Part shown: in pieces, positions 13,415 through 13,918 of the stretch
Layout of the letters: the number at the start of each line of letters is the position of its first letter
Numbering within the stretch: the first letter of the stretch is position 1
Sequence record: MT446416.1
Origin: Escherichia virus TH47
Length of the DNA: 64,000 bases
Direction: 5' to 3' (one strand)
The notes under the pieces: model-generated
Told to the model about the DNA's origin: nothing
Databases searched by the model: none
The model's input: only the letters and a program-made list of their open reading frames with translations
Position numbers and translations under genes: made by a program

Positions 13415-13918
13415 TTATTTTACTTTGACAGTACAGGTTACCTTCTTACCCTGGAATTCAACTTTCTGGACATACGTTACGTTACCCAAACGACTAACGA
13501 ATGATTCCATTGCATCAACGTTGTTTTGGATAACAGTTGCGTTTGTGCCGCGACCTATGGTTTTCATTACAATGTGTACTTGCTTACCTTCTTCTAAGAA
13601 CTTGCCTGCACTTTTCGCTTTAATAAGCAAATCATGCTCTTGAGTTCCGAAGTTGAATTGAATCTCTTTAGTACTAACAGTGTTTTGACGCTGTTTCTTC
13701 AAAGAGGCTTTTTCAGCCTGTTTCAATTCGTATTTGTATTTGTTCAGATCAGTGATTTTAACAGCAGGTTCATCACCTGCTCCAATAACCACCAAATCCA
13801 GACCTTCAGTTTCTGCTAAAGCAAGTGCTTTAGAGATTGCCATGACTTCACTTTTACCTTCCGTAACTAGACGGACAGTTTTTGCGGTGATTTCGTTATT
13901 GGCAATAATAGATTTCAT
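13415..13918 (-). CDS. infC: translation initiation factor IF3 homolog
   Basis: Both IF3 domains align over the full length: [10 protein letters not shown]...GLDLVVIG...[14 protein letters not shown] and [14 protein letters not shown]...[13 protein letters not shown]. Confidence 0.75.

Follow-up and report, generated by a model that had tools for sequence, protein, structure and literature searches.

The stretch of DNA analysed here, 64,000 nucleotides (nt) of Escherichia virus TH47 (sequence record MT446416.1; below, the window), encodes a genuine, full-length, two-domain homologue of the bacterial translation initiation factor IF3. A first-pass annotation, made from the letters alone, had placed a 167-amino-acid (aa) IF3 homologue at 13,415–13,918, and the list of open reading frames (ORFs) and the sequence both agree with it, all peptides that it quoted being present in the translation. 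We consider it probable that this gene, fixed in RaK2/121Q-type jumbo phages and passed on vertically among them, supplies a working IF3 which acts on host ribosomes. The IF3 of RaK2-like phages is already known from GenBank annotation, from PHROG and from papers of 2017, 2020, 2021 and 2025, and what we describe is thus not a new kind of element. Our analysis contributes useful refinements, namely an altered KTIGR loop, a perfect match to the promoter consensus, a deeply conserved linkage of IF3 to two neighbouring genes (ClpS-like and KTSC), and the insertion of ribosomal protein S21 in a Vibrio phage relative, which together make the functional question more testable. The motif change, the promoter and the conservation of the gene trio are not mentioned in the passages of PMC5259590, PMC7824862 and PMC11895373 that keyword look-ups brought up.

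The homology to IF3 extends over both domains, as the first-pass annotation had claimed. Both Pfam domains score above their curated cut-offs, IF3_N (PF05198) with 59 bits against 26.9 (E 5e-16) and IF3_C (PF00707) with 46 bits against 34.8 (E 4.6e-12), and the NCBIfam infC equivalog TIGR00168 is matched over its full length with 99.8 bits (cut-off 60). The ORF also matches PHROG 9787, 'translation initiation factor', at 5.9e-66, and phmmer against the sequences of the Protein Data Bank (PDB) retrieves the IF3s of E. coli, Thermus and Geobacillus at about 1e-15. An AlphaFold2 (AF2) model built from an input alignment of 25 sequences (mean predicted local distance difference test score, pLDDT, 82) consists of two alpha/beta domains with a long connecting helix, residues 58–79, in which confidence dips around residue 75. 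The top matches of the model in a Foldseek search of the PDB are all IF3: the best full-length match by template modelling (TM) score, on which the predicted fold superposes, is 30S-bound Thermus IF3 (5lmn_X; TM 0.72, E 4e-13), E. coli and mitochondrial IF3 rank next, and the alignments with ribosome-bound IF3 span 167–169 columns. Neither outcome that the first-pass annotation had named as refuting its assignment, a lack of significant profile hits to IF3 domains or a fold that fails to superpose on IF3, was thus observed. The phage protein thus shares with bacterial IF3 (for example E. coli 8jsg/8jsh and Thermus 5lmn) the two alpha/beta domains, the basic helical linker and the length class, and with Thermus IF3 also the short N-terminal tail. 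Antisense ORFs of 61–72 aa that overlap the IF3 ORF are usual by-products of a coding region. The coordinates of the gene, its parts and its surroundings are compiled in Table 1.

Table 1. Positions of the IF3 gene, its domains and expression signals, and the adjoining genes in the window.
Feature	Position	Strand	Description and basis
IF3 coding sequence	13415..13918	minus	167 aa, ATG start, TAA stop; Pfam, TIGR00168, PHROG 9787
IF3 N-terminal domain	13706..13900	minus	aa 7-71; Pfam IF3_N; AF2 alpha/beta domain matching 1tif, 6o6d
Basic inter-domain linker	13676..13705	minus	aa 72-81; end of predicted long helix 58-79
IF3 C-terminal (30S-binding) domain	13424..13675	minus	aa 82-165; Pfam IF3_C; fold matching 1tig, 2ife, 6vrj
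KTIGR loop	13550..13564	minus	aa 119-123; counterpart of E. coli 129-RFRGR-133; alignments
Predicted sigma-70-type promoter TTGACA-17-TATAAT (12/12)	13963..13991	minus	consensus match; inferred transcription start near 13956
Shine-Dalgarno GGAG	13929..13932	minus	10 nt upstream of IF3 ATG; read from sequence
ClpS-like gene	12856..13401	minus	181 aa; 13 nt downstream of IF3 stop; PHROG 15940
KTSC-domain protein gene	12241..12780	minus	179 aa; Pfam KTSC 52 bits; third of conserved trio
Conserved 64-aa ORF	13988..14182	minus	just upstream of IF3; PHROG 15132 at 1.3e-37

By its substitution pattern, the IF3 gene is under strong purifying selection: the ratio of nonsynonymous to synonymous substitution rates (dN/dS; Nei-Gojobori) is 0.077 against 121Q (dS 0.81) and about 0.2 against RaK2 and GAP32. 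An exhaustive representative search supplied 137 other IF3s for comparison with the phage clade; counting a position as conserved where at least 75% of these agree, we found that the clade retains 25 of the 27 conserved positions. The sole clear change is the clade-wide replacement of K79 by Q, and the other deviating position, L118, is still Leu in 77% of the clade. D96, K100 and G122 (E. coli D106, K110 and G132) are invariant, and Y63 and R123 (E. coli Y75 and R133) are each found in 25 of the 26 clade members. In place of E. coli R112 and R116 stands Lys, a conservative exchange. For E. coli IF3, D106 has been described as universally conserved, D106 and K110 have been implicated in the interaction with the ribosome, and Y75 is critical (PMC3401457). 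The net charge of the phage protein (+7, versus +8 in E. coli) is distributed in a similar way over N-domain, linker and C-domain, with +4 versus +5 in the linker. Overall identity to E. coli IF3 amounts to only 29%, and the gene is thus not a recent capture from the host.

The phage from which the window derives is a RaK2/121Q-type jumbo myovirus of about 360 kb and not T4-like in the strict sense. Over the 2.1 kb around the IF3 gene, identity is 99.7% to Escherichia phage Turkey3 (361 kb), about 98% to several coliphages of 355–386 kb and about 85% to 121Q and PBECO4 (genus Asteriusvirus), and the window as a whole maps to Turkey3 positions 202,366–266,365. A survey of related phages, which the first-pass annotation had proposed, found the IF3 protein by tblastn in 92 of 50,697 phage records and conserved in the RaK2-like group. 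Its core set comprises phages of Escherichia (33 records), Klebsiella (10), Salmonella (8), Erwinia (8), Yersinia (4), Serratia (2), Cronobacter (2) and Pectobacterium (2), plus Xanthomonas phage XbC2. The ClpS-like neighbour is matched in 71 records with the same genus counts, and the KTSC neighbour in 73, with equal genus counts plus one Vibrio phage and one unrelated match. As the genus counts are equal, the three genes travel together across the phage group, and since 71 records, judged by genus count, carry all three, IF3 belongs to the standard gene set of RaK2-like phages. The view that IF3 is an unusual gene in a T4-like phage therefore has to be revised on both counts. Some IF3 matches in the phage collection are false, because bacterial DNA has been filed as phage: the record CAKLQH020000014.1, 'Acinetobacter phage MD-2021a', contains thrS-infC, rpmI-rplT, fadD and entS and is bacterial chromosomal DNA.

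Dozens of GenBank records already carry an IF3 annotation for the gene, among them 121Q gp47, RaK2 ORF153, GAP32_313, CBB_318 and Sharanji gp294. With orthologues that are 54–99% identical, of equal length and flanked by the same neighbours, the gene in the window is another member of this family. According to the CBB paper, CBB, GAP32, 121Q, PBECO4 and RaK2 alike encode IF-3 (PMC5259590), and Iyer et al. report IF3 together with a KTSC protein in 'group 2.2' jumbo phages (PMC7824862). Al-Shayeb et al. (2020) list IF1 and IF3 among the translation genes of huge phages (PMC7162821), and the Sharanji paper notes that the function of IF3 in phages cannot be stated (PMC11895373).

A perfect (12/12) match to the sigma-70 consensus lies 45 nt before the ATG of the IF3 gene and is the sole one in the 64 kb; by our own estimate from base composition, about 0.1 such sites would be expected per window by chance. 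All 11 sites that score at least 11/12 lie on the minus (coding) strand, which carries most genes. Several of these sites fall inside ORFs, for example at 4390–4362, 16156–16128 and 14187–14159. GCTTGAC -35 and TAnAAT-type -10 elements also precede IF3 in phages of four other genera: in 121Q, where both hexamers are identical to those of the window, in RaK2 (TTTACT-17-TATAAT), in GAP32 (TTGACT-16-TACAAT) and in XbC2 (TTGACG-17-TACCAT). Transcription from the predicted promoter would give the IF3 message a leader of about 38 nt. The spacer between -35 and -10 is filled by a perfect palindrome, AGAAC-N4-GTTCT (13,973–13,986), of which 121Q keeps both arms with a different 4-nt centre, and which could be an operator or a product of chance. 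We rejected the palindrome as a repeated operator: the window has a single copy of it, and 9% of shuffled sequences give the same result. An Rfam search of the whole window at gathering thresholds gave no match to a regulatory RNA.

The gene also departs from its bacterial counterparts in organization and start codon, as it stands outside a thrS-infC-rpmI-rplT operon and begins with ATG, unlike E. coli infC, which begins with ATT. The AUU start is the basis of the autoregulation of host infC and makes its translation self-limiting. With its ATG start, the phage IF3 would thus escape the infC feedback loop.

The most conspicuous departure of the protein itself from E. coli IF3 concerns the loop that inspects the start codon, which adds to the exchanges of Y70 (L in the phage protein) and K79. 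In place of E. coli R131 the phage IF3 carries an isoleucine, I121, and alignments reveal the loop form K[T/A]xGR instead of RFRGR throughout the clade. A basic residue at position 131 is present in none of the 26 members of the RaK2-like core clade, which have I, S, A, V, T or Q, in 3 of the 17 nearest metagenomic relatives and in 115 of the 134 remaining IF3s; the aromatic residue at position 130 has also been lost from the clade (T or A). RFRGR with its basic 131 is a functional motif that is not needed for homology. It is highly conserved in bacteria, and R131 touches +2U, +3G and +4 of the start codon; its exchange in the R131P variant favours initiation at non-AUG codons, on leaderless mRNAs and with the 3GC-mutant initiator tRNA (PMC11775629). 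A role of R131 in mRNA contact and start-codon discrimination has been described independently (PMC3401457). Like the phage protein, mycoplasma IF3 (by nature P, F or Y at 131), mitochondrial IF3 (KKGK instead) and the E. coli infC R131P mutant lack an arginine at this position (PMC11775629). Judged by its KTIGR loop, the phage IF3 may therefore inspect codon–anticodon pairing less stringently than the host factor.

This trait is not shared by all phage IF3s. Agrobacterium phage Atu_ph07 has RFKGR, and three huge phages (LR7565xx) have xxKGR or xxKRR. As these keep a basic residue at 131, the change is specific to the RaK2-like lineage, in which it is fixed, and does not characterize viral IF3s in general. 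In contrast to the RaK2-like sequences, the Atu_ph07 and LR7565xx IF3s fall outside the clade in a rough neighbour-joining tree (one numerical warning; bootstraps of 55 and 32 for the exact clades), which lends weak support to the idea that they were acquired independently.

Our favoured explanation, a working IF3 on host ribosomes, would operate as follows. The sigma-70 RNA polymerase of the host would transcribe the gene early in infection, and the phage IF3 would bind the host 30S subunit where host IF3 does, at the platform and in the P-site region, to supplement or progressively replace the host IF3 pool. Because the phage gene starts with AUG and not with the self-limiting AUU, total IF3 activity could exceed the set-point of the host. 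Such an excess would hold the subunits apart, promote their recycling and accelerate initiation on phage messages, almost all of which have an AUG and a Shine-Dalgarno (SD) sequence, and the KTIGR loop might at the same time lower proofreading stringency. The phage IF3 would join IF1, IF3, S1 and S21 of huge phages and the IF3 of Atu_ph07 as phage-supplied initiation machinery.

Several points weigh against this explanation. The RFRGR motif is not kept, and the phage factor possibly does not perform the full IF3 cycle. With an identity of 29% to E. coli IF3, binding to the host 30S subunit can only be presumed, and the AF2 model (predicted TM-score, pTM, 0.48) leaves the mutual placement of the two domains undefined. 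The promoter is known as a consensus match only, and promoter-like matches overall are no commoner in the region than in shuffled sequence. Finally, our search of the literature yielded no experiment on a phage IF3, be it biochemical, genetic or transcriptomic, and no transcriptome for the RaK2-like phage group.

The altered loop also allows another reading. A reprogramming IF3, made permissive by the loss of R131 and F130, would compete with host IF3 and loosen proofreading towards non-AUG starts, leaderless messages and unconventional initiator tRNAs to the advantage of the phage. We regard this as possible, if rather unlikely. The distribution of residues at position 131 speaks for it, as do the contact of R131 with the start codon, the permissive R131P mutant and the natural replacements in mycoplasma (PMC11775629, PMC3401457); that independently acquired phage IF3s keep a basic 131 marks the change as fixed in this lineage. 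However, unlike the R131-less systems named above, with their non-AUG starts, leaderless mRNAs and altered initiator tRNAs, the phage has genes that look canonical, and its factor would act beside wild-type host IF3. A search for phage genes that exploit relaxed start selection gave no support: of the 73 genes annotated in the Turkey3 region equivalent to the window, 72 begin with ATG and 59 (81%) carry an SD core, which is a weak test, since gene callers allow only ATG, GTG and TTG and are blind to AUU or CUG starts. The leader predicted for the IF3 message itself likewise does not fit leaderless initiation.

A co-adapted phage initiator tRNA was rejected as well. The 64-kb window contains no tRNA genes, and an odd tRNA(CAU) in phage Sharanji is neither of the initiator type nor co-distributed with IF3: it has a G1-C72 pair and a long extra arm, lacks the GGG/CCC anticodon stem, and occurs in only 9 phage records, which do not include the closest relatives Turkey3 and 121Q, nor RaK2 and GAP32. 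This tRNA of 90 nt (374–463, minus strand, in our locus L009) has an A73 discriminator, is unusual for a Met or Ile tRNA, and is adjoined by a tRNA-Ser(ACU).

Downstream of IF3, the ClpS-like gene directly adjoins, as the first-pass annotation had noted. It has an AAGGA of its own, and the KTSC gene follows after a gap of 75 nt; given the short distances of 13 and 75 nt, the three genes, headed by IF3, are likely co-transcribed. The Pfam ClpS model scores 17 bits on the window protein, below its cut-off of 23, and 24–66 bits on orthologues, which pass. The AF2 core of the protein confirms a ClpS fold (target-normalised TM 0.89–0.90 against E. coli ClpS, root-mean-square deviation 1.3–1.8 Å). 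An assignment as an L7/L12-like ribosomal protein, suggested by the annotation of a Vibrio phage, was rejected: the fold search gave ClpS at E of about 1e-4 and TM 0.9, versus E 0.035 for L12. The ClpS-fold core (about aa 70–155) is preceded by an extra, beta-rich N-terminal domain of about 70 aa that more distant relatives of 89–118 aa lack. In the alignment, NDD of E. coli ClpS is DDP in the window protein and H66 is N; the Vibrio orthologue keeps NDD. G74 and E79 (E. coli numbering) are invariant across all phage versions. We take N34, D35, D36 and H66 to form the N-degron pocket of E. coli ClpS and E79 to contact ClpA.

Upstream, the stop codon of the 64-aa ORF overlaps the -35 box of the IF3 promoter, and an ORF of 64–65 aa occupies a similar position in 121Q, RaK2, GAP32, XbC2, the Vibrio phage and two metagenomic contigs. 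The next ORF (14,206–14,796) comprises 196 aa with a TTG start, and its PHROG alignment begins at residue 9; its counterparts in Turkey3 and 121Q are annotated with 188 aa and an ATG start, and 121Q and XbC2 name it 'structural protein'. The order of a Dda/PIF1-type helicase, the protein of about 190 aa, the 64-aa ORF, IF3, ClpS-like and KTSC, with topoisomerase II/gyrase-like genes slightly further on, is kept in Turkey3, 121Q, RaK2, GAP32 and Xanthomonas phage XbC2. It recurs on metagenomic contigs whose IF3s are 49%, 37% and 38% identical to that of the window, one of which lacks the 64-aa ORF and has no recorded Pfam match for the gene at the ClpS position. A further contig of 1.1 kb holds IF3 (40% identity) followed by ClpS and nothing else. 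The position of the KTSC gene is constant in all relatives that were compared. Its product is much better conserved between genera than its neighbours, with 68–72% identity to the KTSC proteins of CBB and of Erwinia and Klebsiella phages, against about 54–69% for IF3 and about 36–63% for the ClpS-like protein; KTSC proteins are annotated variously as 'DnaJ-like', 'structural protein' or 'DNA polymerase III'.

In Vibrio phage 2.275.O._10N.286.54.E11, whose IF3 is 38% identical, a gene for ribosomal protein S21 stands between IF3 and ClpS (positions 4015–4260 of our locus L007; PF01165, 48 bits against a cut-off of 27). A tblastn search of the window with this S21 gave no match. S21, like IF3, works in translation initiation on the small subunit (PMC7162821), and its insertion directly after IF3 suggests that the gene group is aimed at the 30S initiation site. 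An association of IF3 with Clp genes is also seen in the unrelated-looking Agrobacterium phage Atu_ph07 (490 kb), where IF3 directly follows a ClpX gene (zf-C4_ClpX plus AAA_2), with a ClpS adaptor about 4 kb and a threonyl-tRNA synthetase fragment about 6 kb away, across the origin of the record. Compared over these genomes, the linkage of IF3 to the Clp system is robust. In the Atu_ph07 region (our loci L010, 2673–4495, and L012, 1–2074), IF3 also lies near topoisomerase genes, and the thrS fragment recalls the bacterial thrS-infC linkage.

This linkage allows a more far-reaching and speculative proposal, which we think improbable: IF3, ClpS-like and KTSC, with S21 in the Vibrio relative, could form a module for the take-over of initiation, switched on early by the consensus host promoter. 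The R131-less IF3, its start-site proofreading altered, would act outside the infC feedback, and the ClpS-like adaptor, with E79 kept and its pocket remodelled, would redirect or disable ClpAP and might conceivably remove host IF3 or another translation factor. If this were true, ribosomes in infected cells would run on the phage's own initiation factor.

A still less likely alternative assigns the gene to growth in poor hosts: in slowly growing cells, an IF3 devoted mainly to anti-association and recycling would split idle or hibernating ribosomes (70S and 100S) to release their 30S subunits and could dispense with proofreading. The invariance of the D106 and K110 equivalents (with R112 replaced by Lys) alongside the variable residue at 131 would fit such a role, and a related phage encodes an S30EA/HPF-type ribosome factor, according to its description (PMC11895373). 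The proposal is nevertheless purely inferential, and it overlaps with the working IF3 that we favour without excluding it. We see very little prospect for a decoy that occupies the IF3 site on the host 30S subunit without supporting initiation and so adds to host shut-off: the altered functional motif and the strong early-type promoter could be read in this way, but purifying selection acts on both domains, on the linker and on nearly all conserved positions, more than a simple blocker would require, and a general block would hurt the phage, whose own messages depend on these ribosomes and bear canonical AUG and SD signals. That the gene is a passenger, a recently captured host infC or misassembled host DNA, can be dismissed in spite of bacterial thrS-infC-rpmI-rplT loci in 'phage' records such as that of MD-2021a, given its low identity to E. 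coli IF3, a dN/dS of 0.08, the ATG start, the missing thrS/rpmI context and a phage synteny that spans at least nine host genera and metagenomic contigs.

Phage IF3 has repeatedly been listed as a candidate for redirecting host translation, and its presence in a culturable group of E. coli phages makes the question experimentally tractable. For the working IF3 proposed here, the loss of the start-codon-contacting arginine leads to a falsifiable prediction, a weaker discrimination against non-AUG and leaderless starts, for which an I121R revertant is the natural control. The linkage to ClpS-like and KTSC, together with S21 in one lineage, suggests which partners belong together in such tests.

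Beyond the IF3 region, the window carries a replication and nucleotide module that includes gyrase/topoisomerase II-like subunits, ribonucleotide reductase alpha and beta, dihydrofolate reductase, RNase H, DNA polymerase, clamp and clamp loader, primase, a DnaB-like helicase and UvsW/UvsY/RecA-like proteins. Structural genes (major capsid protein, prohead protease, tail fibre) and packaging genes (terminase) make up further modules. A curious parallel to the phage linkage is found in E. coli K-12 (920,500–927,500), where infA, the gene for IF1, lies between clpS-clpA and aat, which encodes the Leu/Phe-tRNA-protein transferase of the N-degron pathway.

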